Origin: an uncultured Bacillus sp.
GTDB taxonomy: Bacteria; Bacillota; Bacilli; ZCTH02-B2
Reading direction: 5' to 3'
NCBI GenBank assembly: GCA_947085265.1
Contig: CAMTVR010000012.1
Coordinates: 178,180 to 242,179, forward strand
Length of the DNA stretch: 64,000 nt
The notes beneath the pieces were generated by a model. That model saw only the letters and a program-made list of their open reading frames with translations. It was not told the DNA's origin and made no database searches. This document shows, one piece after another, positions 15,605 through 58,689 of this stretch. How positions within the stretch are numbered: position 1 is the stretch's first letter; every line of letters begins with the position of its first letter. The translations under genes were made by a program, and so were the position numbers.

Positions 15605-17026
15605 GTGGCAGCTGCAAAAGGGGGGAAGGAGTTGCAAGGATTTCTGCTTCATCGAAATCGAAAAGATCTTGCAAAAAAAGCCCGTGAAGAAGGGTTAATG
15701 GAAGGAGGTACCATACCATCTCACATTCAACCTGATGTTTTGATTTTATGGGATCAGCACATGATGTCAGACCATTCTAATCATTCTAACATTATTGTGC
15801 TCAATCGGCAGCAAGCCGTTCAGCAAGCGATGGATGCCAACGTGCGAACAAGCATTTTACAACTAAGTGGGATATCGTGCGTTACATCTGAAAAACCCAT
15901 CCGTTTTCCGCGGAGGTATTACATCGTTTTATTTCAGCACCAAGTCATGGGAGTGTATTTGTTCCAAAAAGCAACCGTATGGCAGATGGATGAAAAAAAA
16001 TCCCGATTACAAAGAGGGACGTTCCTTCCGCAGAAAAAGTATTCACTGGAGGTGAAACGAGCCATCCGTTTGGCCATCGGCGCTCTCTACGCAATGGGTT
16101 TAGATTTTGGGGGGATCTTGATCGGTGTTCGAACATCCCATTCGATGAAGATCATCGATATTGATCCGACACCTCATTGCACACCTGCCGTTTTAGGACA
16201 TTATGCACGAACCTTTGTCCGGTATTGTCGGACCATCATGGAGCCAGATGAAATGACCCTCGGCACCGACATCGAATTCTTATTGAGTAGCCGATCCGGA
16301 AAGCCGGTTCCGGCCTCTCGATTTATGTCTTATCGAGGAAGGGTGGGATATGATGCATACCGTGATCCCCAGAATCGGTCCGTGCACCCGATTGCAGAGC
16401 TTCGCCCTTTACCAAGTAAACATCCTCTGCAACTCTATCGAAACTTGTATGCAACCATGAAACAGGCCAATAAAATGATTGGCTCATCCAACTTGTCCTG
16501 GTTGGCAGGGAATGAACCCATCGCAAATCTTCCGATTGGTGGACATTTGCATTTTGGCAATGTACCTTTTCATTTTTTGTTGCTTCGTGTTTTGGATGAA
16601 TATTTGGCTTTACCGTTTCGCATTTTAGAAGATCCACGAGGCATCTCGCGACGGCCCAAATATGGAAAGTTAGGGGATGTACGGACCAAACGGCATGGGT
16701 TTGAATACCGAACATTGTCCAGCTTTATTTATTCTCCCAAAATCACGCTCGCCACATTTGTCCTGGCAAAGTTCCTCGTTCATCACCATTTAAAACTTCC
16801 CATTGGGACGTTGTTGAATCCGGATGTATTGCATTCTTATTACCGTGGAAATGGAGCTGAGCTCTACTCACTTGCTGAAGCCAAAATGTCATTGATTGAA
16901 TCGCTTCCGCAATATGAAAATGTCAAGGAGCATGTCAATCCATTATTTCAAAAAATACGTGAAGGAACTCCTTGGGATGAAAAGAAAGATATTCGCCCTG
17001 CCTGGAGGCTGACCTTGCCTTACTGA
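15605..17026 (+). CDS. hypothetical protein (function unknown; C-terminal half faintly resembles GS-like/COOH-NH2 amidoligase domains); start codon uncertain
   Basis: long ORF with good coding texture between cotE and mutS; no motif I can name confidently; no clean RBS at the candidate starts 15605 (GTG), 15632 (TTG) or 15698 (ATG). Confidence 0.45.
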   Translation: MAAAKGGKELQGFLLHRNRKDLAKKAREEGLMEGGTIPSHIQPDVLILWDQHMMSDHSNHSNIIVLNRQQAVQQAMDANVRTSILQLSGISCVTSEKPIRFPRRYYIVLFQHQVMGVYLFQKATVWQMDEKKSRLQRGTFLPQKKYSLEVKRAIRLAIGALYAMGLDFGGILIGVRTSHSMKIIDIDPTPHCTPAVLGHYARTFVRYCRTIMEPDEMTLGTDIEFLLSSRSGKPVPASRFMSYRGRVGYDAYRDPQNRSVHPIAELRPLPSKHPLQLYRNLYATMKQANKMIGSSNLSWLAGNEPIANLPIGGHLHFGNVPFHFLLLRVLDEYLALPFRILEDPRGISRRPKYGKLGDVRTKRHGFEYRTLSSFIYSPKITLATFVLAKFLVHHHLKLPIGTLLNPDVLHSYYRGNGAELYSLAEAKMSLIESLPQYENVKEHVNPLFQKIREGTPWDEKKDIRPAWRLTLPY

Positions 17027-25530: not shown

Positions 25531-26160
25531 TTATTCTTGATACTGCCTGAACAGTCCTATCACTTTACCCAAAATGGTGACATGAGGGAGGCGTATCGGT
25601 TCCATTGCGGGATTTTCCGGTTGCAGGCGAATGTGATCGTGCTCCTTGTAAAATCGTTTGACGGTGGCCTCATGTTCTTCCGTCATGGCCACCACGATCT
25701 CACCGTTGTTGGCCGTATGTTGTTGTCGGACAATCACATAATCCCGATCCTGGATTCCAGCATTGATCATGCTATCTCCACGTACGAGCAGCATAAATAC
25801 AGTTGACTCGTTGGGCGCCATGAATTTGGGAACAGGAAAATAGGTTTCGACATTTTCAATTGCGGTAATGGGCAAGCCTGCGGTCACTTTACCGACAATT
25901 GGAATATGTACCACTTCCGGCTGAGAATCGGCATGACTCATCTCGCGATCGAGGATTTCGATGGCACGAGGTTTGGATGGGTCGCGACGGATATATCCCT
26001 TTTTCTCCAGTTTCGCCAAGTGTCCGTGAACGGTAGAGCTGGATGCCAGGCCGACCGCATCACCGATTTCCCGCACGGAAGGAGGGTATCCTTTTTCACG
26101 GACTTCCTTGACGATAAACTCTAATATGGCTTGTTGACGTTTGGATAGAGGTTCCATCAA
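25531..26160 (-). CDS. lexA: SOS transcriptional repressor LexA
   Basis: winged-helix N-terminus ([10 protein letters not shown]...[14 protein letters not shown]), S24 peptidase domain with Ala-Gly cleavage site and Ser/Lys dyad. Confidence 0.9.
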
Positions 26161-27764: not shown

Positions 27765-28619
27765 TTATCCATGCCCATAACCGTAACCCGGGTGTGTGCG
27801 GATCCACTCGCGCAATTCTGCGAGTGCTTCCTGATACGGCGTGACGGCGTAGGTGAAATCGGAGCGGGTGTTGACCAAGCTCTTGTCGGCGGTGATCCTG
27901 TCGCAGGGGCGTATCGTGATGTCTTCACGGCCAAACGCCTCCTTGAGCCAAAGCAGCAGCTGATACTTGGATATTTTCCCAGGCGTGGCCAGATGCACCA
28001 ATCCGGCAATCACCGGTTTTCGCAGCACCCAGTCGATCGCCTTGGCTAATTCCAGCGTGGTCACGCCGTTCCAGAATGCCCTGCGGTAGCCCTGCACTAC
28101 CCCTTTCTGATTCATGAACCAGTGGAACAAGCCGATGCCGTCCTTGAGTTCAGGACCGATGATTGAGGTGCGTATGGTGAGGTGGCCGCCATACGTCACC
28201 TCTCCCAAGCTTTTGGTCTTCGCGTAAGCGGTCATGCCGTCGGTGACATCTTCTTCCGTGTATTCTCCCCGCTTGCCGGAAAAGACGCAGTCCGTGCTGA
28301 TGTGGATCAGCCGAAAACCCATTTTTTCGCCAAGACGGGCCACCTGGTGGGGAAACAAGCTGTTGACGCAAATTGCGTCGAAGAGACGGCGGGAAGCCTC
28401 TTCGTTGAGAAGGCCTGTCGCATTGATCACGACATCGGGACGGACGAGGCGGATCGCCTGGGCCACTGCCGCTTGATCGGTGACGTCCAAACTGATTGCA
28501 TGAGGATCATCTGATTTTTCCCGCACGGTATGCCACACGTCATGCCGGCCGCATTCCGACAGGTGCGCCCGAATGACGTGCCCGGCCATGCCGTTGCCGC
28601 CAAACACCAGGACCCTCAA
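27765..28619 (-). CDS. RmlD-type SDR reductase; FnlB/Cap5F-like candidate (UDP-2-acetamido-2,6-dideoxy-L-hexose pathway reductase)
   Basis: RmlD substrate-binding-domain family; TTG start at 28619 overlaps the upstream stop as TTGA with GAGAGGGGGA RBS; the 60 upstream codons of the ORF track overlap the previous gene and are rejected. Confidence 0.7.
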   Translation of the reverse strand: MRVLVFGGNGMAGHVIRAHLSECGRHDVWHTVREKSDDPHAISLDVTDQAAVAQAIRLVRPDVVINATGLLNEEASRRLFDAICVNSLFPHQVARLGEKMGFRLIHISTDCVFSGKRGEYTEEDVTDGMTAYAKTKSLGEVTYGGHLTIRTSIIGPELKDGIGLFHWFMNQKGVVQGYRRAFWNGVTTLELAKAIDWVLRKPVIAGLVHLATPGKISKYQLLLWLKEAFGREDITIRPCDRITADKSLVNTRSDFTYAVTPYQEALAELREWIRTHPGYGYGHG

Positions 28620-30691
28620 TCGAGAAATCCCCCTCTCTTCAGCATGTGTGCGATTTGCTCGTGTGTCATCAAAGATGACTGGGAGGTATACTCGCGAAAT
28701 GGCACAGGCTGTAGGGACCCGTATTGCCGGACAAGCGCCGGAGACGGATGTTCGGGCAGGACGATAAAGTACTGCTCCCCATAGCAATACGTGCGCGTCG
28801 TTTCGTAGCGGGAAACGAGCACCTCGTGCAGCTTCTCACCGGGACGGATGCCAATTACCTGGATGGGCACCGGTGCGATGGCCAGGTGTTCCCGCATGAC
28901 GATGGCCAGATCATGGATGTTGCATGCGTTCATTTTCATCACAAACGTCTCTCCCCCGATCGACACTTCGGCGGCCTTCAGCAGCAGTTCGATCGCTTCG
29001 GGCAGGGTGAGGAAAAAACGGGTCATGTCTTTGGAGGTGAGCGGAATCGGATTGCCTGCCAGGATCTGTTCGCGAAAAAGCGGGACGACACTGCCGTTGG
29101 TGCCCAGCACGTTTCCTCCCCGGACGCAGACGAAACGTGTCTTTTCACTAAGATTGTTGGCGCGGATCACCAGCCGTTCGCCCAGCCCCTTGGTCATGCC
29201 GTAAACGTTGACCGGTTCGACCGCTTTGTCGGTGGATACGTCGATCACCTTGTGAACCCCTTGGGCGATGCTGGCCCGGATGACGTTTTCGGTTCCCATG
29301 ACGTTGGTCTTGAGCGCCTCTGCCGGCTGATTCTCGCAGATCGGAACATGTTTCAACGCGGCCAAGTGAAAGACGTAATCCACGCCCGCGCACGCATCCC
29401 AAACGGCCTGGCAATCCCGTACATCCCCGATACGGAACTTGAGCGAGGGATGGTTGTCAAAAACCCGCTGCATCTGGACCTGGGCGTATTCGTTGCGGGA
29501 AAAGATGCGGATTTCTTTCGGGCGTTTCGCCAAAAGCCTGCGGGTCAGTTCCCGTCCCCATGAGCCGGTCCCGCCGGTTACCAGAATGGTTCGTCCTTCA
29601 AACATGGCGGAGCCCCCCCCCAATATGAAACGGACCACTTTCATCGATACGTTGGGGTCCTTGTACCCTTCGGGGCACTCCCAAGAACGGGAGGTGCCGA
29701 TCATCAGGCGAACACAGGCGGCGATTCGTTCCGGTTCCAGACCGGATACCGTATTGCTGCCGCATAATACCGTTTCGGGCCGCTCCGTCGATTGCCGGAT
29801 GGTGACCGCCGGGACGCCAAGGAGACAGCTCTCCTCTTGCACGGTGCCGCTGTCCGTCACGACGCAGCGGGCCTTTTTTTGCAGTTGGACAAAATCAAAA
29901 AATCCGAACGGCTCACACCACTTGATCAGCGGATGGGACGGATCGAGGGAGAACTGTCGGAAACGGGAACGGGTGCGCGGATGGACACTGCAGACAATCG
30001 GCAGCCCCGTCTGTTCAGCGACCAGCTTCAGGCCAGTGAGGATGTTGCGCAGCCTCCGTTCATTGTCGACGTTTTCGGCGCGGTGTGCCGTCACCAGGAT
30101 GTACTGGTTTGCGGCGAGACCGAGTCGCTCCACGATGTCGCTTCGCTCGATCCGTCCCCGATAGTGCTCCAGAACTTCATAGATGGGGTTGCCGCACACC
30201 CAGACGCGCTGCGGATCGATCCCTTCCCGCAGGAGATTTTCCCGCGCGACGGGTGTATACGGCAGGTTGTAGGAGGAGATGGCATCGATGATCTTGCGGT
30301 TGATTTCCTCCGGCACGGTCATATCGTAGCAGCGGTTTCCCGCTTCCATATGGTACACCGGCATTCCCAAACGCTCGGCCAGCACGGCGCAAAGCGCGCT
30401 GTTGGTGTCGCCGAGCACCAGGATGCGGTCGGGGCGTTCTGCGAGCATCAGCTGTTCCACTTGAGCGAATATCGTACCAACCTGTCTTCCAAATGAATGG
30501 GCATTTATTTGCAGTTTGTGGTCGGGTTGGCGAATGCCCAATTCCTCAAAAAAGATTTCGTTCAACAAGCGTTCGTAATTTTGTCCTGTATGAACCAACA
30601 CGTGGCGTGAGGCGAGGAGGTCAAGACGGGGTATGATCCGGCTCAGGCGGATCAATTCGGGACGTGTTCCGAGGATTGTCATCACTTTCAC
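28616..30691 (-). CDS. bifunctional fusion: N-terminal UDP-N-acetylglucosamine 2-epimerase (WecB/FnlC-like) fused to C-terminal UDP-GlcNAc 4,6-dehydratase (Polysacc_synt_2; Cap5E/FnlA/PseB-like)
   Basis: N-terminal domain MTILGTRPE...HMEAGNR...PEEINR is WecB-like; C-terminal domain LVTGGTGSWG...YGMTKGLGE...GTNGSVVP closely resembles Cap5E/FnlA; the two domains share a continuous reading frame; start GTG 30691 or ATG 30682 downstream of AAAGGAGG. Confidence 0.8.
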   Translation of the reverse strand: MKVMTILGTRPELIRLSRIIPRLDLLASRHVLVHTGQNYERLLNEIFFEELGIRQPDHKLQINAHSFGRQVGTIFAQVEQLMLAERPDRILVLGDTNSALCAVLAERLGMPVYHMEAGNRCYDMTVPEEINRKIIDAISSYNLPYTPVARENLLREGIDPQRVWVCGNPIYEVLEHYRGRIERSDIVERLGLAANQYILVTAHRAENVDNERRLRNILTGLKLVAEQTGLPIVCSVHPRTRSRFRQFSLDPSHPLIKWCEPFGFFDFVQLQKKARCVVTDSGTVQEESCLLGVPAVTIRQSTERPETVLCGSNTVSGLEPERIAACVRLMIGTSRSWECPEGYKDPNVSMKVVRFILGGGSAMFEGRTILVTGGTGSWGRELTRRLLAKRPKEIRIFSRNEYAQVQMQRVFDNHPSLKFRIGDVRDCQAVWDACAGVDYVFHLAALKHVPICENQPAEALKTNVMGTENVIRASIAQGVHKVIDVSTDKAVEPVNVYGMTKGLGERLVIRANNLSEKTRFVCVRGGNVLGTNGSVVPLFREQILAGNPIPLTSKDMTRFFLTLPEAIELLLKAAEVSIGGETFVMKMNACNIHDLAIVMREHLAIAPVPIQVIGIRPGEKLHEVLVSRYETTRTYCYGEQYFIVLPEHPSPALVRQYGSLQPVPFREYTSQSSLMTHEQIAHMLKRGGFLD

Positions 30692-30744
30692 ATCCAATGA
30701 GCCTCCTTTCCTCACTTTCCTTCCTCCAAAGTTCAAGACTGAGC

Positions 30745-31458
30745 TCATTCCGCTTCTTTCGGGAGCAAGAGGTGTTTCCACTTGGGAAATTCCTCATTGG
30801 CCCTCGTGAAATCCGCCGGCTGGCCGATGTCCATCCAGAACGCATCATTTTCATAATGCCGAACCGTCTCTCCTTTTTCCAAAAGCGCTTGGATCAGATC
30901 TGGGATGTCGAAAAACTGCCGTTCCGGGATGTACTCAAGAATGAGTGGATCCATCATGTAGATCCCCATACTGACATGGGCATTGCGCAGCGGTTTCTCG
31001 ATGAATCGGATGACACGTTCTCCCTCCGTCTCCAGCACACCAAGGTTGATGGGCACGTGTTTTTGTTGCGATGCGACGGTCATGATGCTGCGTCCGGACG
31101 TGTGAAACTCCCAGAACGCACGAAACGACAATGTGGTCAGTATATCGCAGTTGATGAGCAAAAACGGCTCGGACAAGTGGGTGAGCGTCTTAAGCGGTCC
31201 TGCCGTCCCGCGGGGTTCCGTTTCCACCTGATAGGCAATCGAGACGCTCCACGCACTCCCGTCGCCAAAATAGCTCTGGATCAAGGAAGCCCGATAACCG
31301 CATGCCATTGTGATGTTGGTGAAACCGTGGTATTGGAGCTGTTTCACGATGATTTCCAGAATCGGCTGATCTCCTACCGGCAAAAGTCCTTTGGGCAGCA
31401 CCTTGGTGTACGGCATCATGCGTACGCCTCTGCCCCCGGTCATGATGACAGCATCCAC
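30745..31458 (-). CDS. sugar-1-phosphate nucleotidyltransferase (NTP_transferase; short RmlA/RfbF/HddC-like)
   Basis: MTGGRGVRMMPYTKVLPKGLLPV nucleotidyltransferase signature; GTG start 15 nt after the upstream stop with GAGAGGGGGAA RBS. Confidence 0.8.
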   Translation of the reverse strand: MDAVIMTGGRGVRMMPYTKVLPKGLLPVGDQPILEIIVKQLQYHGFTNITMACGYRASLIQSYFGDGSAWSVSIAYQVETEPRGTAGPLKTLTHLSEPFLLINCDILTTLSFRAFWEFHTSGRSIMTVASQQKHVPINLGVLETEGERVIRFIEKPLRNAHVSMGIYMMDPLILEYIPERQFFDIPDLIQALLEKGETVRHYENDAFWMDIGQPADFTRANEEFPKWKHLLLPKEAE

Positions 31459-31473
31459 GGTTGATTCCCCCTC

Positions 31474-32466
31474 TCACACGATGTACTCGGTCGGACGCTG
31501 ATATAAGTGCTTGTGGCGCATCATCCAGTCAATCGTCCGCTGCAGGCCTTCTTCCAGAGTCACAGATGGCTTCCATCCCAAGACGACTGCTGCCTTGCTG
31601 CTGTCAGAAAACAGCCGATCCACTTCGCTTTTTTTCGGCCGTAGCCGGTTTTGATCCACCCGCACCGGCAAATCCCGGCCCATTCGCTCGAGAATCATGC
31701 GGGCCAAATCCCGCACCGAGATTTCAAACCCGGAACCGACGTTGAACAAATCGCCGACCGCTTTGTCCTCTTCGGCCGCGTATAGAAACGCCCGCACGGT
31801 ATCTTCCACAAAAGTGTAATCTCGTGTTGGCGACAAGTTTCCCAATACTATTTCCGAGCGGTGAAGGGCCTGGTTGATAATCGTCGGAATGACCGCCCGC
31901 ATGGACTGATGCGGACCGTAAACGTTGAACGGGCGAATGGTTACCACTGGCGTGTTGTACGAACAGTGGAAGCTCTCTACAAGCTTGTCGGCCGCTATTT
32001 TGCTTGCCGAATACGGAGACTGTCCCTGAAGCGGATGGGTTTCGTCCATTGGCACGTAACGTGCAGTGCCGTACACCTCGCTCGTCGACGTGTGTACCAT
32101 GCGGGGAATGCCCAGATCCCGGACCGCCTGGAGCACGTGCAAGGTGCCGAGCACATTGGTCTCGACGACTTCTGTGGGGTTACGGTAAGAATACGGGATG
32201 GCGATCAGCGCGCCAAGGTGAAACACCGCATCGACACCCTTCACAGCCTGATAAACCGCTTGAGGGTCCCGCAAATCTCCCTTGACAACCTCAATTTCCT
32301 TGAGTTGATCGGCCGGCAGATGCTCGAGAAACCCGAGCGTATTGAGCGAATGGTAGCGCACAAACGCGCGGACGGTCGCGCCAGACATGACGAGCAGCTG
32401 AGTCAGGTGGCTGCCGATAAAACCAGATGACCCCGTCACCAGCACTGTTTTTCTTCTGATGTCCAT
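31474..32466 (-). CDS. NAD-dependent epimerase/dehydratase family protein (extended SDR, RmlB-like sugar 4,6-dehydratase or 4-epimerase)
   Basis: TGSSGFIGSHL Rossmann motif, TSTSEVYG, YSASK catalytic Tyr/Lys; start ATG 32466; the ORF track N-terminal extension is rejected. Confidence 0.75.
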   Translation of the reverse strand: MDIRRKTVLVTGSSGFIGSHLTQLLVMSGATVRAFVRYHSLNTLGFLEHLPADQLKEIEVVKGDLRDPQAVYQAVKGVDAVFHLGALIAIPYSYRNPTEVVETNVLGTLHVLQAVRDLGIPRMVHTSTSEVYGTARYVPMDETHPLQGQSPYSASKIAADKLVESFHCSYNTPVVTIRPFNVYGPHQSMRAVIPTIINQALHRSEIVLGNLSPTRDYTFVEDTVRAFLYAAEEDKAVGDLFNVGSGFEISVRDLARMILERMGRDLPVRVDQNRLRPKKSEVDRLFSDSSKAAVVLGWKPSVTLEEGLQRTIDWMMRHKHLYQRPTEYIV

Positions 32467-38299: not shown

Positions 38300-39616
38300 A
38301 TGGCCCATCTTCCGCTGGTGAGCATCATCACGCCCAGCTACAACCGAAGCCGTTTTATCCGGGAGACGGTCGTGAGCGTTTTGCAGCAGGATTATCCTTT
38401 TATTGAACACATCGTGGTCGACGGAGGATCGACGGACGGCACGGTGGAAATTCTGCAACAATACAGCCAACACGGCGACAGGTTTCGCTATGTCTCGGAA
38501 CCGGACCGCGGCCAGTCGCACGCGATCAACAAGGGGCTGGCCATGTCTCGGGGCGAGATCATCGGGTGGCTGAATTCGGACGATACGTATCTGCCAGGCG
38601 CCATCCGCAAGGCCGTGCGCGCGCTGCTGCAGCATCCCCACTGGGCGATGGTGCATGGCTTGGCTTACGTGACGGACGAGCGGAGCCAGCGGCGGTCCGC
38701 TTATTCGGTGGAACCGGTGGATTACCAGAAATTGTTTCATGGTTGCCGCATCTGCCAGCCCACCGCCTTTATTCGCAAGGATGTCTTTCAACAGCTGGGG
38801 GGAGTGGATGAGTCACTGCACTTTTGCATGGATTATGATCTCTGGATCCGGATCGCCAAACGGCACACCATCGGGTTTCTCGATGAATATTTGGCCACTG
38901 CCAGAGTCCACCCGTCAGCCAAAAGCGTGACGCATTGGAAATCCATCGGCCTTCCCGAGATCCTGCAGACCATTTCCAAGCATTACGGAACCGTCTCCAA
39001 TGATTGGCTGCAATTGTTCCTGTCGCAACACGCGGATAAAGACATTTTCTGGTTGTTAAACCGCTTCAAGGATTATTCAGTTTTTGGAATTCCGCCAAAA
39101 ATCAGCAACATAAACCGATATGCCGATTTCTGGGTTCCCGCCCGATTGGTCATGACCGTGGAGGCGGATCCGGGGTTTCCCTTGCACGCCTTGCTGCTCA
39201 AGGGGAGGGTTCCCCTGTCCGCCTTCCCGTCCGCCCACAGGAACAAATATCGGCTCACTGTTCTTTTAAACCGTAAAATCACCGGCACCTTTTTCATTGA
39301 CCAGGAATCCTTCACTCTGGAAGTCCCTCTTCATACTTCCCAGTCATCCAACCACATTGAAATGATGTCATCCCACTTCATCCCTTCCGGGCATCCCCTG
39401 AACCCTCATCAGACGCCGCTCAGCTTTCTCGCCGACGACGTCATTCCTCTTTCCCGCAAGGAAGCGGAATTTTACCGCGTCTATCAGCGCTCTCCATACC
39501 TGGCTGCAGCTTGGATCTGGCAAAACAGGCAGCCTGTTCCTTGCCCGCCATCGCTTCAAGAAAATCCCTTTCGGAGCGGAACTGGAAGCACCCACGACGG
39601 GGAGGACACTGGATGA
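38300..39616 (+). CDS. family 2 glycosyltransferase with divergent C-terminal extension; paralog B
   Basis: N-terminal roughly 100 aa about 90% identical to paralog A, then diverging; ATG 38300 after GGAGTG RBS. Confidence 0.8.
   Translation: MAHLPLVSIITPSYNRSRFIRETVVSVLQQDYPFIEHIVVDGGSTDGTVEILQQYSQHGDRFRYVSEPDRGQSHAINKGLAMSRGEIIGWLNSDDTYLPGAIRKAVRALLQHPHWAMVHGLAYVTDERSQRRSAYSVEPVDYQKLFHGCRICQPTAFIRKDVFQQLGGVDESLHFCMDYDLWIRIAKRHTIGFLDEYLATARVHPSAKSVTHWKSIGLPEILQTISKHYGTVSNDWLQLFLSQHADKDIFWLLNRFKDYSVFGIPPKISNINRYADFWVPARLVMTVEADPGFPLHALLLKGRVPLSAFPSAHRNKYRLTVLLNRKITGTFFIDQESFTLEVPLHTSQSSNHIEMMSSHFIPSGHPLNPHQTPLSFLADDVIPLSRKEAEFYRVYQRSPYLAAAWIWQNRQPVPCPPSLQENPFRSGTGSTHDGEDTG
38351..38603 (+). 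repeat. direct repeat copy 2 (5' region of GT2 paralog B)
   Basis: see copy 1. Confidence 0.8.
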
Positions 39617-40629
39617 AAATTGTCATTCCAATGGGCTACCTGCACCTGGGCGGCGGGTGCAAAGTGCTGGTTGAGACCGCAAATGCGCTGGCCGCGCGCG
39701 GGCACGAGGTGGAACTGTGCCCGTTGCGGGTGCTGACGCAGATGTACCCTGTTCGCTGCAAACTGACCCCCATTCCCGTGCTGTCGAGGGAGTACATCCC
39801 TTACGGGGACATTGTTTTGCCCAACTTTTACACCACGTTTCGCCCCGCTTATTCCGCCTGGCCCGCCCAGACCGTGCGGCTCAGTCTGGGGTTTGAACCG
39901 TACTGGGTGCCCGACCCGAAGGAGGCGCTGTGGACGTACCGGCAAGGCGTGCCGATCCTCTCCATCTCCCGCTGGCTGGATGAGCAGATCCGCAAGCATG
40001 CGGGGCAACGCAGCACAGTGGTCAATCCGGGTGTCGATCTGACCGTATTCCACCCCGGTCCGAAATTGAAGACGTTCCGAACAGATAAACCAAAAGTCAT
40101 CATGTACATCGCCCGCGATCCCGGCGCGGGGTATCAATTGAAAGGGTTTCACGATTTCGTCGCCAGTCTGCAAATATTGAAAAACTGGTACCCTGATTCC
40201 TTTGTCGTGAACCTCGTGTGCCCCGAAAAGAAACTCGGCGTGCCGGGCATTCCGCATCAGGTTTATTCGCCGGCAAGCGACGCGGAAATGGCGCAACTGT
40301 ATCGGGAGGCCGATATGTTTGTCTCGTCGTCCTGGTTTGAAGGGTACTCCCTTCCCCCGCTGGAAGCAATGGCCTGCGGAACACCGGTGGCGACCACCAA
40401 TTCCGGCGGCGTGCTGGACTACTGCACCCATCTGCAAAACGGCTACATCGTGCCGCCGCGCAACCCGGTATTGCTCGCCGAGGGGATGCACGCCGTGCTC
40501 ACCAATGGTACCCTGTACAACAAGCTGGTGATCGGGGGGCTGCAGACAGCGAAGCGGTTTTCCAAAGACCGTTTTGAACGAGAAATTGTCACTGCCCTGG
40601 AAGCCATTTTTGAGGCGCGAATGCGCTGA
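39613..40629 (+). CDS. family 4 glycosyltransferase (GT-B, Glycos_transf_1)
   Basis: EGYSLPPLEAMACGTPV (EX7E motif); ATG 39613 overlaps the previous stop as ATGA. Confidence 0.8.
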   Translation: MKIVIPMGYLHLGGGCKVLVETANALAARGHEVELCPLRVLTQMYPVRCKLTPIPVLSREYIPYGDIVLPNFYTTFRPAYSAWPAQTVRLSLGFEPYWVPDPKEALWTYRQGVPILSISRWLDEQIRKHAGQRSTVVNPGVDLTVFHPGPKLKTFRTDKPKVIMYIARDPGAGYQLKGFHDFVASLQILKNWYPDSFVVNLVCPEKKLGVPGIPHQVYSPASDAEMAQLYREADMFVSSSWFEGYSLPPLEAMACGTPVATTNSGGVLDYCTHLQNGYIVPPRNPVLLAEGMHAVLTNGTLYNKLVIGGLQTAKRFSKDRFEREIVTALEAIFEARMR

Positions 40630-40686
40630 TTCCACAGGATCGGGAAATCCTTGAGAACTGCGCTCATGGGAGGGAGGGATTTTTCT

Positions 40687-41388
40687 GTGCGCATTGCACC
40701 GAAGGTTTCGGTGGTCATCCCGTTTTACAACTGCGCGTACGTGAATCAAGCCATTGAAAGCGCCCTGAACCAGAGTTACCCCCACATTGAGGTGATTGTC
40801 GTCAACGACGGTTCGACTCGGCACGTCGAGAAAATTACGCCGTACGTTCACCGGATAAGGTACATCGAAAAGGCCAACGGAGGCACGGCCAGCGCCCTGA
40901 ACGCAGGAATCCGCAACGCTTCCGGAACGTATTTCGCCTGGCTGAGTTCGGACGATTTTTACGACAGGCACAAAATTGCCAGCCAGATAGCGTTCATGCA
41001 ATCCGCCAGTGCCTTCGCCAGCCACACCGCTTTCTACTTCATAGACGCACACAATCGTATACGCCGCCCCACTCCCTACACCGTTTTTGGAAACCGGATC
41101 GATTTTTTTGAACAAATGAAACATGGTTGCCTGATCAACGGTTCCACCGTCATGCTCAGCATGGACGTGTTCGACCACGCAGGACTGTTCGACGAATCGC
41201 TCCGCTATGCGCATGATTACGAATTCTGGCTGCGCGTTCTGATGAGATACGACTTCCTTTACATGCCGCAACCTCTACTCTACTACCGCGTCCACAGTGA
41301 GATGGGATCAGGCAAATTCGCGCCGCAGCTGGCTAGAGAAACGCTGCTCGTCCGGCAAAAATACCAAAACATGGTTATTCATCCGTAA
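40687..41388 (+). CDS. family 2 glycosyltransferase
   Basis: VSVVIPFYNCAYVNQAIESALNQSYPHIEVIVVNDGS...LSSDD; GTG 40687 after GGGAGGGAGGG RBS (the ORF track start at 40651 is also possible). Confidence 0.75.
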   Translation: MRIAPKVSVVIPFYNCAYVNQAIESALNQSYPHIEVIVVNDGSTRHVEKITPYVHRIRYIEKANGGTASALNAGIRNASGTYFAWLSSDDFYDRHKIASQIAFMQSASAFASHTAFYFIDAHNRIRRPTPYTVFGNRIDFFEQMKHGCLINGSTVMLSMDVFDHAGLFDESLRYAHDYEFWLRVLMRYDFLYMPQPLLYYRVHSEMGSGKFAPQLARETLLVRQKYQNMVIHP

Positions 41389-41411: not shown

Positions 41412-41759
41412 TTACTCCAAGTATAGCTTTGTCTCCACGACGGCCGCCGCGCCGGCCGCGGCCAGCACGACCAGGATGGGAAAAGCGGCCGGCACCAAGA
41501 AGTACAAGGCAACGATCGCTGTGGAAGACCAGATGCCGACACACCAGTGACAGCTGAGGAGTATCCCTAGCCAGCGGCGAAAGCCTGAACCCTTCAGGTG
41601 GATGTGCCGTACCACCTGGCCGGAAGGGTCGGCTTCATAGGAAACGCTGAAAAACGGTTCACGCAAAAACGACATGATGTCGTCATAAACAATCAAATGT
41701 GTCAAACGAAAGCTGGCCAATACGATAATCACGAGATGGAGCCACGTCATCTCAAACAT
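41412..41759 (-). CDS. DUF1360-family small membrane protein
   Basis: about 115 aa, two to three TM helices, HLIVYDDI motif typical of Bacillus DUF1360 proteins; ATG 41759 with GAGGAAG RBS. Confidence 0.5.
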   Translation of the reverse strand: MFEMTWLHLVIIVLASFRLTHLIVYDDIMSFLREPFFSVSYEADPSGQVVRHIHLKGSGFRRWLGILLSCHWCVGIWSSTAIVALYFLVPAAFPILVVLAAAGAAAVVETKLYLE

Positions 41760-41862
41760 CAGTTCCACTTCCTCGTTAAGATTTGTTCCTGATTCACGCG
41801 CGATGCAAAAGCCGGACATGCCTGAAAAATTCACAGGCCTGTGCGCGCCGTTTTTTGTTTCG

Positions 41863-43140
41863 TCAGCACGACACCGCGATCCGATTGTTGGAGGAAAATT
41901 GCACCTGCTGTTCGCGGAAAAAGATGAATCCTTCGATCGTCACGCTGTTGCCGGATTCCGGTGTCATCACGGTCATCTGGAAGTTTTGGAAAGGATGGAC
42001 TTCCTTTGGCGCGATACGCACCGGCTGAACCGGAGCGATCCAGTACTCCCCCCGCTCCTTTGCCTTCTCAAACCAGTCTTCCTCCAGAAATCTCCAGCCC
42101 CTTACACCCATAGGACTTTGCACGCCGAGCGTCTCCACCATGTTGGCCGGCAAAATCTGCCCGCCCAGTTTGACGCTGCCAGGGGGATCGGCGCGCAAGC
42201 AAACGACCGGGTTGATCAATGCTTCCGTTCCTGTATTTTTGACATATAGGTTTCCGAAGATCAAAAACGGCTTACCCTCGATGTCGGAGCGGAGCACGGT
42301 GTAATCAAAAAACACCTCGGCAGCCAACTCTCCCTGTTCCGGCAGCCGGCTTGCTGCTTCGTCGATCGGCTCGCCGACCGGCTTCTCCCAGGCACTGGGC
42401 AACCTCCGTGTTTCCCTCTCCCCCTTCTCGAGCATCGGGGGTGTTGCCGCCAACATCCGCAAAACAGCGGGAGTCAGACAGGAGAGTGGCGAGATTTGCT
42501 GTTCTGTCAGCAAGTAGCGAAGGATGCCGGACGCGAAAAAGAAGGCTATCCGCTCTGCCCACTCCTTCCAGGCCGTTTGCGCCATGCTGGTCGGAAGCTG
42601 GCAGCAAACCTCGACAAATGCGTGGAACGGCTGGCACCCGCGCCGCCATTCGGTTGCGCACGGTATCCCCGCGCTCTTCCATTCTGTCTCCAGACAGTGC
42701 ACCAATGCTTGGTTGCACCGGCTTTCATGCTGAATGATAGTCATTCGGGGCGGAAGCCCGATGTCTGCCTTTTCGATGGTAAATTGTACGCATACATCCT
42801 TCTGTTCCGGCCAGTCCAACCGGTTCGGCGACAGAGCGACGCTCACCCCAGCGGCGGTGAGAAATCGTTCCGTCAGTGCCAAAATGTCCCGTTCATGTGG
42901 ATGGAAATCGGTTGCGGCGGGAACCTGTCGGTGCCTATCCTCCAGCACACACATTTTCCCTTTGAGCCCCGGCGCGAGAACAATCCTGTTTTCTTTTGGC
43001 TCCCACTGAAAGTGAAACCCGCTTTCTTGACAAAACAGACGAAAGGCAGGCAGTGATGTGAAAGGGATCGTCCCACACGTTTGACCAGCGTAAAAAACCG
43101 CAACATCATCCATCCCAAATCCCCCTTCTTTATCGGTCAT
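41863..43140 (-). CDS. hypothetical protein (425 aa, Cys-containing central region, no recognisable domain)
   Basis: long ORF with GAGGGAGGGG RBS 7 nt before the ATG at 43140; co-directional with the DUF1360 gene. Confidence 0.55.
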   Translation of the reverse strand: MTDKEGGFGMDDVAVFYAGQTCGTIPFTSLPAFRLFCQESGFHFQWEPKENRIVLAPGLKGKMCVLEDRHRQVPAATDFHPHERDILALTERFLTAAGVSVALSPNRLDWPEQKDVCVQFTIEKADIGLPPRMTIIQHESRCNQALVHCLETEWKSAGIPCATEWRRGCQPFHAFVEVCCQLPTSMAQTAWKEWAERIAFFFASGILRYLLTEQQISPLSCLTPAVLRMLAATPPMLEKGERETRRLPSAWEKPVGEPIDEAASRLPEQGELAAEVFFDYTVLRSDIEGKPFLIFGNLYVKNTGTEALINPVVCLRADPPGSVKLGGQILPANMVETLGVQSPMGVRGWRFLEEDWFEKAKERGEYWIAPVQPVRIAPKEVHPFQNFQMTVMTPESGNSVTIEGFIFFREQQVQFSSNNRIAVSC

Positions 43141-44311: not shown

Positions 44312-45571
44312 TTGGTAAGGCAAATCAGACCCATCAAGGGTTTTCAAGTTCCGACGCCGACGCCGACCGCACCCGCGCCGATTCCGAACAATCTGCAAGA
44401 AGAATGCATCCGCGTTCAAAAGGTGTACGACTGGGTCGTGACCGCGAACCGGGATCAAAACAAAGTTCAAATTCCTAGCGACTGTCTGGCTCTTGTCAAC
44501 GAAGCCATCCAGGCCGGGCAAAATATCACTGTTCAATGTGTGGAGCCGGTCATCCCTTCACCATTCCCGATCATTCCGAAACCGCAGCCGACGCAGGGAC
44601 TCGACTTCTCCTGCCGGATCATCAGCATTCGCCGGGAAAACATCGTTATCGGGGGCAACGTCGTCCGGGTCGGCATTGTCCGCTTTCTCTTCAGTGCTAC
44701 GCTGCTGATCCGTGTTTTTGCCGACGGCACGCTGTTATGCGAATTTCCAGCCACTGTCCAGTTCGACGATGAAATCGTGCTCTGCCTGCCAGAACCGCTC
44801 GACGAAGACAACATCCTCTGCCGGATTACCGCGGTTGAGTGCACGCCGCTGGAGCCCATCCTTGGCGGCCAAATTCTGATTGACGTGGTCATTTGCAAAG
44901 AAATCCAGGTGGAAGCGGAAGTGAAGCTGGAGGTATTGGCAAAATTTTGCCAGCCTCGCCCAGCCGACATACCCGTACCGACACCCACGCCGCCAGCATT
45001 CCACTGCCCACCAGTCATCTTCCCGGCACAATGCCCAGAGATCTTCCCGCGTCAAAACTGCGACTGCCAGGCAACTGCCAACGTCATTCTCACCAATTCG
45101 ACCGTGCTGTTTGACGGCGTAGCGGAAGTCGGCACGGAACAATTAATAGCCGAGATCTGCCCGAACTGCAATCCGGGAGACAGTACCTTCTCTTATACCT
45201 TTGTCGACACGATCTCACCCACACCGACACCCACGCCTACCGACGAAGTCCCTGGCGATTTCAGCTTCGTCTTCACACCGGTACAAATCAGTACACCTGT
45301 TTGCTCAGCGATCCCTGGCGGCGGCCTGCAGGCCGTGGTCACCGGTACAGGAACCCGCACATTCACCGCAACCGGCACACAGGATACCCTTGCCTACGAG
45401 CTAACGCTGCGTGAACTGCCCGGCCTCACGGACGAATACCGCCTCATCCTGCGCAACGCGCTGGGTGCCATCGTCTTCGACACCGGGTTCAAGACAGTTC
45501 CGGACGCCAACCTCATCGTCCAAGACTGCATCACCTTCCCGGATGTCATTCCGGCGCCATCTGTGCCCTAA
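44312..45571 (+). CDS. cysteine-rich three-module protein with Thr-Pro linkers (TPTPT), no signal peptide; candidate glycoprotein substrate / spore-surface structural protein
   Basis: TTG start 7 nt after GGAAAGGGAGGG RBS; three TP-rich linkers (VPTPTPTAPAPIP, IPVPTPTPP, ISPTPTPTPTDE) separate Cys-rich modules; own terminator downstream. Confidence 0.65.
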   Translation: MVRQIRPIKGFQVPTPTPTAPAPIPNNLQEECIRVQKVYDWVVTANRDQNKVQIPSDCLALVNEAIQAGQNITVQCVEPVIPSPFPIIPKPQPTQGLDFSCRIISIRRENIVIGGNVVRVGIVRFLFSATLLIRVFADGTLLCEFPATVQFDDEIVLCLPEPLDEDNILCRITAVECTPLEPILGGQILIDVVICKEIQVEAEVKLEVLAKFCQPRPADIPVPTPTPPAFHCPPVIFPAQCPEIFPRQNCDCQATANVILTNSTVLFDGVAEVGTEQLIAEICPNCNPGDSTFSYTFVDTISPTPTPTPTDEVPGDFSFVFTPVQISTPVCSAIPGGGLQAVVTGTGTRTFTATGTQDTLAYELTLRELPGLTDEYRLILRNALGAIVFDTGFKTVPDANLIVQDCITFPDVIPAPSVP

Positions 45572-45594
45572 TCCAAATCACGCGCACAAACATG

Positions 45595-45630
45595 CGGGAG
45601 AACAACAGATTCTCCCGTATTTTCATTTCT
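45595..45630 (+). terminator. rho-independent terminator after the Cys-rich protein gene
   Basis: CGGGAGA-loop-TCTCCCG stem followed by TATTTTCATTTCT. Confidence 0.7.
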
Positions 45631-45741
45631 GTGTACCAAGAAACAAGAAAAGAGAAGGTTTACCCGTTGTCTTTATGCACATTTTCCTCCCTGTTACATA
45701 TGTCTATAGGGAAAAGCACACGGAATGGAGGAAAATATGCG

Positions 45742-47499
45742 ATGTCACTAAAAAAGAAACCCTCCGGAAAATTGAACCTGATTAAAGAACAGATGACCAT
45801 GCTAAAACGGCAAAGGGCTTACTATCAAACAAAAGCGACGCAATACAGCGAGGAACTCAATGATCTGAAAGAAAGATTGAGAGAAAGTATCCAACGCGAT
45901 CATGAAACCAGCAAACACATGGAGCAGTTAAACGCCGCGCTCATGCGATACCAAGACAAAGAAAAAGAATGGAACGGTGTTGTTGAACAACTATACAACA
46001 AAATCAACGACTTTGAAAAAAGGGAGGCCGATTACCTGTACTTGCTTGAACAAAAAGAAAAATCCATTGCCCATTATCAAAAGAAGCTGGGCACATGGGA
46101 AAAAAGGTTTGAAGAATTAAATGAAAAACTCAAAAAGTTTTCAGAATCGCCACATACGCCAGATTACCAACAGTTGCTGGCGCAAAAAGACGAATCGCTC
46201 GCCCATTATCAGGCGCTTGAAGCAGAATGGAACCAAGCATTGGAAAAACTGAACCAGAAGATTGAGAAGCAAAGGCAAAAGGAGGAAGAATACCGCCAAC
46301 AACTTGCCCAGCTCCACCAACAACTTGCCAATTACGAGGAAAAAGAAGCGGAAAACAGCCGACTCTTGGAACAAACGGAGTTGGCGTACCGAAAACTTCT
46401 TGACCAAAAAGACGAAGAACTACGTCAGCTGACCGAACAAAAAAAAGACCTGATCCGGCACCTTGAAGCTCAACTATCTGAATCGCGGCAACAGCTTGCC
46501 CAGCTCAACCAGCGCCTCGCGGCCTGCCAGGAAAAAGAAACCGAATATAGCCACCTTTTGGGGCAAACAGAGGCGAGATACAGAAAGCTGATTGAGCAAA
46601 AGGAAGCAGAATTTCTCCAGCAATTGCAGCAAAAAAACGAACAGCATCGGCAATTGATTGATCAAAAGGACCATCTGATTCAACGCTTGGAAGCCCTTCA
46701 AGCCGAATCGGAACAGCGCCTCGCCGACCTCCACCAACAACTTGCCAATTACCAGGAAAAAGAATCTGAAACGCTTAAATGGCTAGGTGAAACGGGTGAA
46801 AAACACAGGCAGCTGCTCACAAAAAAAGAGACGGAATTTAGGAAACTGATCGAACAGAAGGACAAGGAATACCGTCAGATCCTGGAACAAAAGGAAACAG
46901 AATACCTCCAGTTCCTGGAGGAAAAAGGGAAGGAATATCGGCAACTTTTGGAGCAAAGGGACGAGGAATATCGCAAGCTGCTGAAAGAAAAGGACAGGAT
47001 GATTGCCCGTTTTGAAGCGCGAGAAGAAGAACTTGAGCAACTTCTGCGGCAAAAAGAGCAGACGATTGCCCGCTATCAAGCCATGGCACTGGAATGGAAA
47101 CAGAATCTGCGTTCTCCCATTCACGAGGAAGAACACTTGGAACAGCTGAAAGAGAACCAAGAGAGCTTATCCGAATACCGGAAACTGCTGCAACAAAAAG
47201 ACGAAGTGATTGCACAGTACGAAGAAAAGGAGCTGGAATGGAAACAGGCGATGGAACAACTGCAACAGCGAATCAGGGAACTGGAAGAGAAAGAGGAGAA
47301 ATACAAGAAGGCGATCAGTGATTATCAGGAAAAGGAGGCAAAATACAAAAAAGCTTTGGAGCAAAACAGCTTTGTGGAACCAAAGGAAGTTACCGTTTCC
47401 ACACTGCTCAACGGCGCTGTCTATGGCAGCCATGCAACGTTTCTCAAGCCGCATCACACCTCTCAGTCCGCACCGTTTAATCCGTTTAAAAACATGTAG
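45742..47499 (+). CDS. long coiled-coil repeat protein (Q/E/K-rich; roughly 11-aa repeats of type K-E/D-x-E-Y-R-x-L-L-E-Q)
   Basis: ATG 45742 10 nt after GGAGGAAAA; about 586 aa with heptad-like periodicity; repetitive at both DNA and protein level. Confidence 0.65.
   Translation: MSLKKKPSGKLNLIKEQMTMLKRQRAYYQTKATQYSEELNDLKERLRESIQRDHETSKHMEQLNAALMRYQDKEKEWNGVVEQLYNKINDFEKREADYLYLLEQKEKSIAHYQKKLGTWEKRFEELNEKLKKFSESPHTPDYQQLLAQKDESLAHYQALEAEWNQALEKLNQKIEKQRQKEEEYRQQLAQLHQQLANYEEKEAENSRLLEQTELAYRKLLDQKDEELRQLTEQKKDLIRHLEAQLSESRQQLAQLNQRLAACQEKETEYSHLLGQTEARYRKLIEQKEAEFLQQLQQKNEQHRQLIDQKDHLIQRLEALQAESEQRLADLHQQLANYQEKESETLKWLGETGEKHRQLLTKKETEFRKLIEQKDKEYRQILEQKETEYLQFLEEKGKEYRQLLEQRDEEYRKLLKEKDRMIARFEAREEELEQLLRQKEQTIARYQAMALEWKQNLRSPIHEEEHLEQLKENQESLSEYRKLLQQKDEVIAQYEEKELEWKQAMEQLQQRIRELEEKEEKYKKAISDYQEKEAKYKKALEQNSFVEPKEVTVSTLLNGAVYGSHATFLKPHHTSQSAPFNPFKNM
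46100..47330 (+). repeat. internal tandem repeat region of the coiled-coil gene
   Basis: recurring DNA units (for example caacaacttgccaattac[cg]aggaaaaagaa at about 46321 and about 46738; repeated gaacaaaagga... units); produces the many spurious antisense ORFs listed in the ORF track. Confidence 0.7.
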
Positions 47500-47779: not shown

Positions 47780-48226
47780 ATGCTGCCGGCTGCTGCGGAC
47801 GACGCTCTTTACATTAACGCAACGGGAGGCGTTTTTCCGGTAGCCCAACGTGTCTGGGATGAAATGGTGAGGCATTGCCTGGAACAACTGCCAAATGAGG
47901 CATGTGGGCTCCTTTCAGGAAAGCGCGGTAGAGCAGAAACGATCTGGAAGATGGATAACATGGAGCACAGTCCTGTTTCATTTTCAATGGACGAGGGACA
48001 AATCCGAAGCGTATTTCATGGATTGGACAAAATGGGTGAAGAGCTGGTTGGGATTTATCACTCCCATCCGACTGCGCCCGCCTATCCTTCCCCGCATGAC
48101 ATGGAACACGCAACTTACCCGGAGGCGGCGTACTTGATCGTTTCCCTTGCCAACCTTCAACCATGGGTCGGGTGCTTCCGCATCCGCGGGAAGCAAGCTA
48201 TCCCTTTGCCCATTTTCATTTTTTGA
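47780..48226 (+). CDS. Mov34/MPN/PAD-1 (JAMM) family metalloprotease-like protein
   Basis: EACGLL...YHSHP....SPHD JAMM motif (E-x(n)-HxH-x(7)-S-xxD); start uncertain (ATG 47780 or 47864). Confidence 0.7.
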   Translation: MLPAAADDALYINATGGVFPVAQRVWDEMVRHCLEQLPNEACGLLSGKRGRAETIWKMDNMEHSPVSFSMDEGQIRSVFHGLDKMGEELVGIYHSHPTAPAYPSPHDMEHATYPEAAYLIVSLANLQPWVGCFRIRGKQAIPLPIFIF

Positions 48227-51724: not shown

Positions 51725-51857
51725 GAACCAGATGCCTCCTGTACAGATACTCAATTCGATTTAATGATAACTGAACCACGTCGAAAACAAAAGAGACACC
51801 GTTTTGGCGTCTCTATTAGCGCTTTTCTTTTCATGTTTTGGCCTTTTGAACACCACT

Positions 51858-58634: not shown

Positions 58635-58689
58635 CTTTGTCCCCCATTTCACGAATTCAACAATCATCCTCTATTTTACCTGTTCTCTA

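Follow-up and report, generated by a model that had tools for sequence, protein, structure and literature searches.

The reading frame of 691 codons in which a UDP-HexNAc 2-epimerase runs on into a UDP-GlcNAc 4,6-dehydratase is, as comparison with related loci suggests, very probably a pair of ordinary genes joined by a recent homopolymer slip or miscount, and not an evolved bifunctional enzyme. The features that bear on this are listed below by position in the window, the whole 64-kb stretch of DNA that was analysed.

31474–32466, reverse strand: LegB-like NDP-sugar 4,6-dehydratase, first of a conserved five-gene block (TIGR04180, 432 bits, below the cut-off of 475)
30745–31458, reverse strand: sugar-1-phosphate nucleotidyltransferase, upstream gene of the conserved operon (PF00483 at 8e-38)
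28616–30691, reverse strand: continuous frame of epimerase and dehydratase, 691 codons, as in this assembly
29622–30691, reverse strand: CapG/WbvD-like non-hydrolysing UDP-HexNAc 2-epimerase part (PF02350 at 1.8e-92)
29613–29621, reverse strand (C9 on the forward strand): G9 homopolymer joining the two domains; its precursor is the Shine-Dalgarno sequence of the dehydratase
29603–29605, reverse strand: internal ATG, 7 nt past the G run, the dehydratase start codon in all relatives
29598–29600, reverse strand: latent TGA within ATGTTTGA, which ends the epimerase in the ancestral frame (from three-frame translations of the window and its relatives)
28616–29605, reverse strand: short-form Polysacc_synt_2 UDP-GlcNAc 4,6-dehydratase part, 329 aa, YxxxK type (PF02719 at 8.7e-97)
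27765–28619, reverse strand: RmlD-fold 4-reductase, 284 aa (PF04321, RmlD_sub_bind, at 1.3e-24)

As assembled, the open reading frame at 28616–30781 on the reverse strand is uninterrupted, both in the list of open reading frames and in the sequence of the window. Pfam places two complete domains on the 691-aa frame, Epimerase_2 at the N-terminus and Polysacc_synt_2 at the C-terminus, with a gap of about 12 residues, so the single continuous frame with the epimerase first, as given in the preliminary description, was read correctly. The start at GTG 30691 (MKVMTILGTRPE) was inferred from the conserved M-K-V-M-T-I-L-G N-termini of the relatives and from an upstream GGAGG. The linker between the domains is GGGSAMFEGR (~10 residues), and the junction peptide of the frame is FILGGGSAMFEGR. 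The domain boundary is the G9 run itself, a point that the preliminary description overlooked, and this is the sole G/C homopolymer of at least 8 nt in the whole 64 kb. With G7 or G10, the latent TGA would terminate the epimerase and leave two genes again; with G10 the epimerase C-terminus would read FILGGGLRHV before the stop, i.e. the ancestral end plus one Gly. At G8, G9 or G10 alike, the epimerase body remains complete and the dehydratase retains an open reading frame with its own start. An Rfam scan of the 64-kb window returned no match.

The comparison set consisted of eight related loci from five lineages, with amino-acid identities of 91% (L083/L084), 75% (L085/L086), 75% (L087/L003), 65% (L004, Alicyclobacillus fodiniaquatilis) and 62% (L088). 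All eight have the order epimerase, dehydratase, reductase, and in each of them the epimerase and dehydratase are encoded separately, in different frames. The epimerases of these relatives end in LGGL(R/H/T)(H/Y)V, with a TGA two codons into the dehydratase (ATGTTTGA), and their dehydratases begin with MFEG or MFEQ; in L003, L004 and L083–L088, MFEGR...GGTGSWG starts at the position of the window's internal ATG. The tract is G7, GGGAGGG, AGGAGGG or GGGAGGC in the relatives, and the site is the ribosome-binding site of the dehydratase. In the 91% relative (L083/L084), which is probably another species, the flanks are the same as in the window (TTTCATATTG, then G7, then CTCCGCCATGTTTGAAGG), and two additional G are the sole difference. 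Alignment A2 likewise shows a 2-nt insertion in the window against all six aligned relatives, and it is these two nucleotides that create the fusion. The fusion had been described as an architecture; that does not survive the comparison, since all eight related loci carry two overlapping genes and the window departs from them solely by its two added G. Separate genes in related genomes with identical DNA had been named beforehand as the observation that would expose a frameshift artefact. Separate genes are indeed what the relatives carry, but their DNA is closely related and not identical.

In 140 of the fetched loci the two genes share a strand; the dehydratase comes first in 131 of these and the epimerase in seven. 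All seven belong to this clade, and none is fused. The locus is a clade-specific rearrangement of the known UDP-6-deoxy-L-HexNAc pathway operon.

In this clade the epimerase comes first, its TGA falls two codons into the dehydratase, and the dehydratase ribosome-binding site GGGAGGG sits within the last epimerase codons, which we take as the ancestral layout. An A-to-G change in the window's nearest relatives would have turned GGGAGGG into an uninterrupted G7, and in the window G7 would have become G9, the two added bases bringing both genes into one frame. The epimerase frame would then run on into the dehydratase to give the 691-aa polypeptide, and the extra G may stem from replication slippage or from an assembly miscount. 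If G9 is real, both domains are intact, and translation of the dehydratase can probably still begin separately at the internal ATG that follows the G-rich ribosome-binding site; we would then expect a mild effect, with the epimerase tethered but no function lost. It would also illustrate a route by which gene fusions may be born, from an internal ribosome-binding site through a slippery run to slippage that cancels the frame offset, and its evolutionary interest would be modest. A more general caution is that, where stop and start codons overlap, a homopolymer that differs in length can yield an apparent "novel fusion". Here the tell-tale signs are that the G9 coincides with the domain boundary and that relatives have the same flanks but no fusion.

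The length of the tract was read from this assembly, and we lean slightly towards G9 being genuinely in the DNA. A pure assembly or sequencing artefact, with a true tract of G10 (or G7 or G8), two separate genes and no 691-aa open reading frame, is a serious competitor that in our judgement falls a little short of an even chance. G/C homopolymers of at least 9 nt are error-prone on every sequencing platform, and the junction is the window's one G9 run. Every relative is unfused, and one more G recovers the ancestral frame and stop. The exact fused protein, sought as start variants of 688, 691 and 693 aa, is absent from a 15-billion-protein collection that does include the products of neighbouring genes on its NCBI contig; this would fit an artefact, and the depositor's annotation may treat the frame as disrupted. 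A junction-centred 140-aa protein search found no identical fragment, and in the independent Logan assembly no gene call spans the junction. Against an artefact, homopolymers of A8, T8 and T9 at other sites in the window are in frame within intact open reading frames with full-length Pfam matches (e.g. MiaA and an amidohydrolase), and the map of open reading frames for the full window has no split genes. The independent Logan assembly of ERR3478717 supplies 4.1 kb of sequence flanking the gene (contigs L001 and L002) that matches the window at 100% identity; these contigs end at 29098 and 30655, short of the G tract. Finally, error alone would have to miscall two bases to get from the relatives' G7 to G9, which favours a real tract.

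We think it unlikely that the run is a hypermutable contingency tract, in which G8, G9 and G10 would vary in the population between separate and fused enzymes and so modulate a surface glycan. Uninterrupted G runs of at least 8 nt are classic slippage sites in the surface-glycan genes of Campylobacter, Neisseria and Haemophilus. The window resembles the poly-G contingency loci of these genera in having G9 within the coding sequence of a glycan operon, in a glycan island, with a length that varies between close relatives (G7 or G9 between identical flanks). It differs from them in that no frame is truncated or OFF, the 64 kb hold no second such tract, and the host is a Bacillota spore-former. 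A homopolymer of at least 8 nt is present in a coding region for a surface structure, but ON/OFF frame switching is not: with a separate ATG and ribosome-binding site retained for the dehydratase, both catalytic domains are translatable in all three frames, and no obvious ON/OFF effect arises. There is likewise only a slim chance that G9 is both real and unstable, so that slippage in the former dehydratase ribosome-binding site would let the strain make either a tethered epimerase-dehydratase of 77 kDa or, at G10 or G7, two free enzymes. Were this so, it would amount to a fusion/fission switch by which a Bacillota organism might tune its spore or cell-surface glycan pathway, in flux or in complex formation, and to the origin of a bifunctional enzyme from translationally coupled overlapping genes, caught in the act.

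A genuine selected epimerase-dehydratase, serving for example substrate channelling or complex assembly, appears very improbable, and comparison with the relatives has already largely refuted it. In its favour, neither domain is damaged, and the two enzymes do occur fused elsewhere, in the opposite order in several proteins and in the same order in one unrelated case. However, all eight orthologous loci carry the genes unfused, and the linker is simply the former ribosome-binding site with its spacer. The window's flanks equal those of the 91% relative, which has no fusion, and neither the latent stop nor the internal start has been altered. Homologous fusions were sought in databases, as the preliminary description had suggested: the top 150 matches from 1.84 billion representative proteins include no homologous same-order case, and the best match in a full-length homology search with the fused protein reached just 53% identity. 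The opposite-order fusions are P0001–P0004 (704–731 aa) and a 718-aa open reading frame in L009 (a Vicinamibacterales MAG), which, like the window's frame, combine both domains in a polypeptide of about 700–730 aa and have epimerase halves 40–53% identical to the window's. They differ in their domain order, which is that of the pathway, in lineage, and in their MxxxK-type dehydratase halves, and are not events orthologous to the window's. The same-order case, P0196 (742 aa), was rejected as a related fusion: it joins a WecB-type epimerase to a long-form CapD-like dehydratase, and its linker of ~60 aa and 32% identity mark an unrelated event. Locus L096 gave one tblastn HSP over residues 1–582 and was considered as a same-order fusion, but it has separate genes that share a frame. 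Triads of reductase, dehydratase and epimerase also occur in other fetched loci, L096 among them. Programmed ribosomal frameshifting or transcriptional slippage as a designed mechanism found no support, and G runs are poor slippery sites.

In our preferred interpretation the locus is a normal, translationally coupled three-gene module of a CapG/WbvD-like 2-epimerase, a short Polysacc_synt_2 4,6-dehydratase and an RmlD-fold 4-reductase. Judged purely by family membership, this module would turn UDP-GlcNAc into a UDP-2-acetamido-2,6-dideoxy-L-hexose, with the sugar probably destined for a spore or cell-surface glycan. The three activities named in the preliminary description are all represented, by matches to Epimerase_2, Polysacc_synt_2 and RmlD_sub_bind. 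The 26–49 kb cluster holds no DegT-type gene, as had also been stated, and with these families present the 2-acetamido-2,6-dideoxy-L-hexose product put forward there is plausible. Just one aminotransferase occurs in the entire window, of class I/II, at 57453–58667, ~27 kb off.

The epimerase match to PF02350 spans model positions 11–346 of 347, and the full set of family-invariant residues is present. It scores 257.4 bits against the wecB model TIGR00236, over the cut-off of 210.15 and thus within the family, and 60.5 bits against the model of the hydrolysing NeuC, far under the cut-off of 235.9. Its closest solved structure is CapG (7ya2, 345 bits, 6e-102), followed by 4hwg (298 bits), with E. 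coli WecB (1f6d) at 115 bits. By these scores, the enzyme is nearer to the CapG type than to WecB or MnaA proper.

The dehydratase is a full-length short-form SDR, matching PF02719 with 324 bits over model positions 1–289 of 293. Its motifs TGGTGSWG (GxxGxxG), STDKA and YGMTK (YxxxK) are present, and VYGMTK and RGGNVLGTNGS are kept across the clade, which indicates that the domain is not decaying. The label 'Cap5E/FnlA-type' given to it earlier does not fit: it scores 273 bits against the FnlA model TIGR04130, whose cut-off is 730, and the catalytic Tyr is retained (VYGMTK), as in FlaA1/PseB-type enzymes, where FnlA and CapE read AMGISK. Its highest NCBIfam score, 311 bits, is to the PseB model TIGR03589, again under the cut-off (407.75). 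To our knowledge, the subfamily with YxxxK and RGGNV that lies outside both the FnlA and PseB models is so far uncharacterised. Among solved structures the best matches are FnlA (4j2o, 246 bits) and CapE (3vvb, 235 bits), then Pen (235 bits) and FlaA1 (231 bits). CapE-type enzymes have Met in place of the catalytic Tyr (MxxxK) (PMC3699295), and the window protein is not of the FnlA/CapE type.

Three known systems invite comparison. WbvB, WbvR and WbvD of Vibrio cholerae O37 form the UDP-L-RhaNAc / UDP-L-QuiNAc pathway, with orthologues in Rickettsia pso and Proteus (PMC6765297). The window shares with them the three enzyme types, a small (~285 aa) RmlD-fold reductase not of the CapF type and the lack of an aminotransferase, and its epimerase's second-best solved relative (4hwg) scores far over WecB proper. 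The likeness is drawn at the level of enzyme families; the order is epimerase, dehydratase, reductase in the window but dehydratase, reductase, epimerase in Wbv; the window dehydratase also differs from WbvB in its YxxxK motif and its low score against the FnlA/WbvB-type model. A WbvB/R/D-like pathway from UDP-GlcNAc to a 2-acetamido-2,6-dideoxy-L-hexose nevertheless seems a reasonable assignment. The UDP-L-FucNAc systems Cap5E/CapF/CapG of S. aureus, FnlA/B/C and WbjB/C/D are similar in that CapG is the epimerase's top solved match; they differ in the Met of CapE and in CapF/FnlB, whose cupin domain the RmlD-fold reductase of the window lacks. PseB, the inverting UDP-GlcNAc 4,6-dehydratase of the pseudaminic acid pathway, and FlaA1 resemble the window dehydratase in YxxxK motif and length, whereas the window has no PseC-type aminotransferase, PseH, PseI or PseF.

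The reductase TTG start overlaps the dehydratase TGA stop by 4 nt (TTGA), in agreement with the overlap reported earlier, and an ATGA or TTGA overlap between these genes is kept in five relatives. The reductase belongs to RmlD_sub_bind at the level of fold (87 bits, cut-off 27) and falls short of the rmlD equivalog TIGR01214 (87 bits, cut-off 224); both it and the dehydratase are under all NCBIfam equivalog cut-offs. An identical 284-aa product is called on Logan contig L001, and a 330-aa gene is called on L002 at the position of the LegB-like gene. The nucleotidyltransferase gene is syntenic in L083–L088, L003 and L004, and every relative has a homologue of the LegB-like gene ~2.7 kb upstream of its epimerase gene.

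The continuous epimerase-dehydratase frame of the preliminary description is present in the window, where the ORF list has the minus strand open from 30781 to 28616. Comparison with relatives places the start at a GTG at 30691 (reading MKVMTILGTRPE and preceded by AAAGGAGG), which gives a product of 691 aa. Two Pfam domains are complete in this frame: Epimerase_2 (1.8e-92, model positions 11-346 of 347) and, about twelve residues later, Polysacc_synt_2 (8.7e-97, positions 1-289 of 293). The described overlap of the reductase start with the fusion's stop is also there, with a TTG start overlapping the TGA of the dehydratase frame in CGATTGAGG. The genes concerned are:

30745-32466, minus strand: nucleotidyltransferase and LegB-like 4,6-dehydratase
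28616-30691, minus strand: fused epimerase-dehydratase frame
27765-28619, minus strand: reductase, RmlD substrate-binding fold (Pfam)

Between the two domains, the sequence is TTC ATA TTG GGG GGG GGC TCC GCC ATG TTT GAA. Its nine-G run (29613-29621) is the only G/C homopolymer of at least eight nucleotides in the 64 kb, and is followed directly by a 7-nt spacer and an ATG that coincides with the start of stand-alone dehydratases (MFEGRTILVTGGTGSWG). In either of the other frames, the epimerase would meet a stop soon after the run; with one G more or two fewer, its C-terminus would be ...ILGG(G)LRHV*, closed by the TGA in ATGTTTGA.

In a species-representative genome set and in metagenome contigs, scans gave 160 loci, eight of which belong to the window's own clade.

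Clade loci and their amino-acid identity to the window
L083, L084: JGI metagenomes, 91 per cent (about 87-90 per cent nucleotide identity)
L085/L086 and L087/L003: compost Bacillota MAG, 75 per cent
L004: Alicyclobacillus fodiniaquatilis, 65 per cent
L088: 62 per cent

All eight have the unusual order epimerase, dehydratase, reductase, and in all eight the epimerase and dehydratase are in different reading frames. The relatives' epimerases end in ...LGGLRHV*, ...LGGLHHV*, ...LGGLTYV* or ...LGGLHYV*, stopping at the TGA in ATGTTTGA, and their dehydratases start at the junction ATG. At the site of the G run, the more distant relatives carry GGGAGGG, AGGAGGG or GGGAGGC, a Shine-Dalgarno sequence that precedes that ATG by about 8 nt. 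The 91 per cent relative has an uninterrupted G7 with the same flanks as the window (TTTCATATTG...CTCCGCCATGTTTGAAGG), and the only difference at the junction in the alignment is 2 nt inserted in the window. (In L084, the dehydratase frame is broken at about 7044-7048 by a 5-nt deletion, TACGT, relative to the window. The deletion lies exactly at the end of contig L083, which is otherwise 100 per cent identical, and is probably an assembly problem or a strain variant in those metagenomes.)

The history of the G run can therefore be read directly from the tracts. A ribosome-binding site within the final codons of the upstream gene lost its interrupting A, leaving a slippery G7, and the two further Gs in the window cancel the +1 frame offset between the genes. 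On this comparison, the fused frame results from two additional Gs in the run at the junction of the overlapping genes and does not represent a new enzyme architecture; none of the five related lineages has it. The window still has the internal ATG, the G-rich ribosome-binding site and the latent TGA intact; the event is young, whether the nine Gs are real or an artefact.

Homologous fusions, which the preliminary description had suggested looking for, did not emerge in the same order among the proteins and loci compared. An exhaustive HMMER search covered 1.84 billion representative proteins, and almost all of the best 150 matches were single-domain proteins. The only two-domain protein of the same order among these 150, P0196, joins a WecB-type epimerase to a long-form CapD-like dehydratase through a linker of about sixty residues (32 per cent identity) and is an unrelated fusion event. 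Both genes share a strand in 140 loci. The dehydratase comes first in 131 of these, mostly with the reductase between; the seven epimerase-first loci all belong to the window's clade, and none is fused. L096, a candidate same-order fusion, proved to be separate genes that share a frame. Fusions of the same pair in the opposite, pathway order do exist (proteins P0001-P0004, 704-731 aa, and a 718-aa ORF at 9995-12151 in L009) and recur in Acidobacteriota-type MAGs and metagenomes. Because the P0003 linker resembles frameshifted sequence, some of these may be artefacts too. In P0308 (613 aa), a dehydratase is joined to an RmlD-like reductase. In P0186 (796 aa, from the representative library), an intein carrying a LAGLIDADG homing-endonuclease domain splits a homologue of the epimerase.

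We lean slightly towards a real nine-G run, an artefact being only somewhat less probable. For an artefact, G/C homopolymers of this length are error-prone, and a single extra G would bring back the ancestral arrangement. For a real run, an error alone, starting from G7, would have to amount to +2; A8, T8 and T9 tracts at other places in the window lie in intact ORFs with full-length domain matches (for example MiaA and an amidohydrolase); and no split genes were seen in the window. Independent contigs from the Logan assembly of ERR3478717 also speak for a real run, as they match the window at 100 per cent over 4.1 kb to either side (29098-27058 and 32772-30655). We found no called gene spanning the junction in that assembly, which favours an artefact. 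So does a 15-billion-protein collection, in which we found neither the fused protein nor any separate half of 28616-30691, whereas six proteins from flanking genes of that genome are present (among them the reductase, nucleotidyltransferase, GMD and LexA), several from one 550,694-bp NCBI contig. This absence may reflect a deposited annotation in which the gene counts as disrupted or as a pseudogene.

The WecB-type label given to the epimerase holds in that its score against the non-hydrolysing wecB model, 257 bits, exceeds the cut-off of 210, but CapG (345 bits) is a much nearer match than WecB (115 bits). The Cap5E/FnlA-type label of the dehydratase has to be dropped: it scores 273 against a cut-off of 730, and its catalytic Tyr (VYGMTK) is of the FlaA1 type, Met being the residue at this position in CapE and FnlA (PMC3699295). 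It also falls below the PseB cut-off (311 against 408), and these misses, together with a clade-conserved RGGNVLGTNGS motif, mark it as a subfamily that is uncharacterised. The reductase can be placed no closer than the RmlD fold (87 bits against a cut-off of 224).

Judging from these families, the dehydratase would convert UDP-GlcNAc to UDP-4-keto-6-deoxy-L-HexNAc, the RmlD-fold enzyme would reduce C4, and the CapG/WbvD-like epimerase would invert C2 to yield a UDP-2-acetamido-2,6-dideoxy-L-hexose, much as the WbvB/WbvR/WbvD route leads to UDP-L-QuiNAc (PMC6765297). The sub-cut-off scores of dehydratase and reductase make the exact sugar uncertain; the small RmlD-type reductase, in place of a CapF-type one, makes L-RhaNAc/L-QuiNAc our best guess. 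The cluster indeed lacks a DegT-type aminotransferase, as described, and the window's sole aminotransferase is class I/II (57453-58667). With nine Gs, ribosomes on the epimerase would continue into the dehydratase to make a 77-kDa two-domain protein, and the dehydratase could probably still be started separately from its own ATG. Since family-invariant residues are kept in both domains, both probably retain activity. Enzymes of the dehydratase family form hexamers (PMC3699295), whose assembly a tethered epimerase could disturb.

The clade keeps a five-gene block of LegB-like dehydratase, nucleotidyltransferase, epimerase, dehydratase and reductase, the last three connected by overlapping stop and start codons. 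The first two lie upstream of the epimerase in all eight relatives (LegB-like enzyme, 432 bits, just below the cut-off of 475), a pattern suggestive of a second NDP-6-deoxy-sugar branch in the operon, or of another nucleotide-activated substrate for it.

The module sits inside a glycan island of about 22 kb between lexA and tkt (GC 0.54-0.58, against 0.45-0.51 in most surrounding sequence), which also holds GDP-mannose, GDP-fucose and ManC genes, a methyltransferase gene, three GT2 glycosyltransferases and several ORFs without a Pfam match. No Wzx/Wzy-type export genes were seen among the island's Pfam hits.

25531-26160: lexA
about 26400-49450: glycan island
39556-41271, 41863-43140 and 44312-45571: three large ORFs without a Pfam match
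41412-41834: DUF1360 protein (Pfam)
45592-47499, plus strand: 635-aa ORF
47780-48226, plus strand: prokaryotic JAB/MPN domain protein, far edge of the island
49706-51754: tkt

The 635-aa ORF, at the island's edge in a region of strong AT skew (0.33), has no Pfam match. Its product is Q/E/K-rich and apparently coiled-coil, with degenerate internal repeats (e.g. YRKLLEQKDEE); it could serve at the spore surface or as a structural protein. Together with the relatives, the genes surrounding the island (recA, rny, miaB, mutS/L, miaA, spoVK-like, lexA) indicate a spore-forming Bacillota organism near Alicyclobacillus. A protein with a phiEco32-like COOH-NH2 ligase type 2 domain (15605-17026, plus strand) lies just upstream of 889-aa and 664-aa ORFs, which by size and synteny we take to be putative mutS and mutL.
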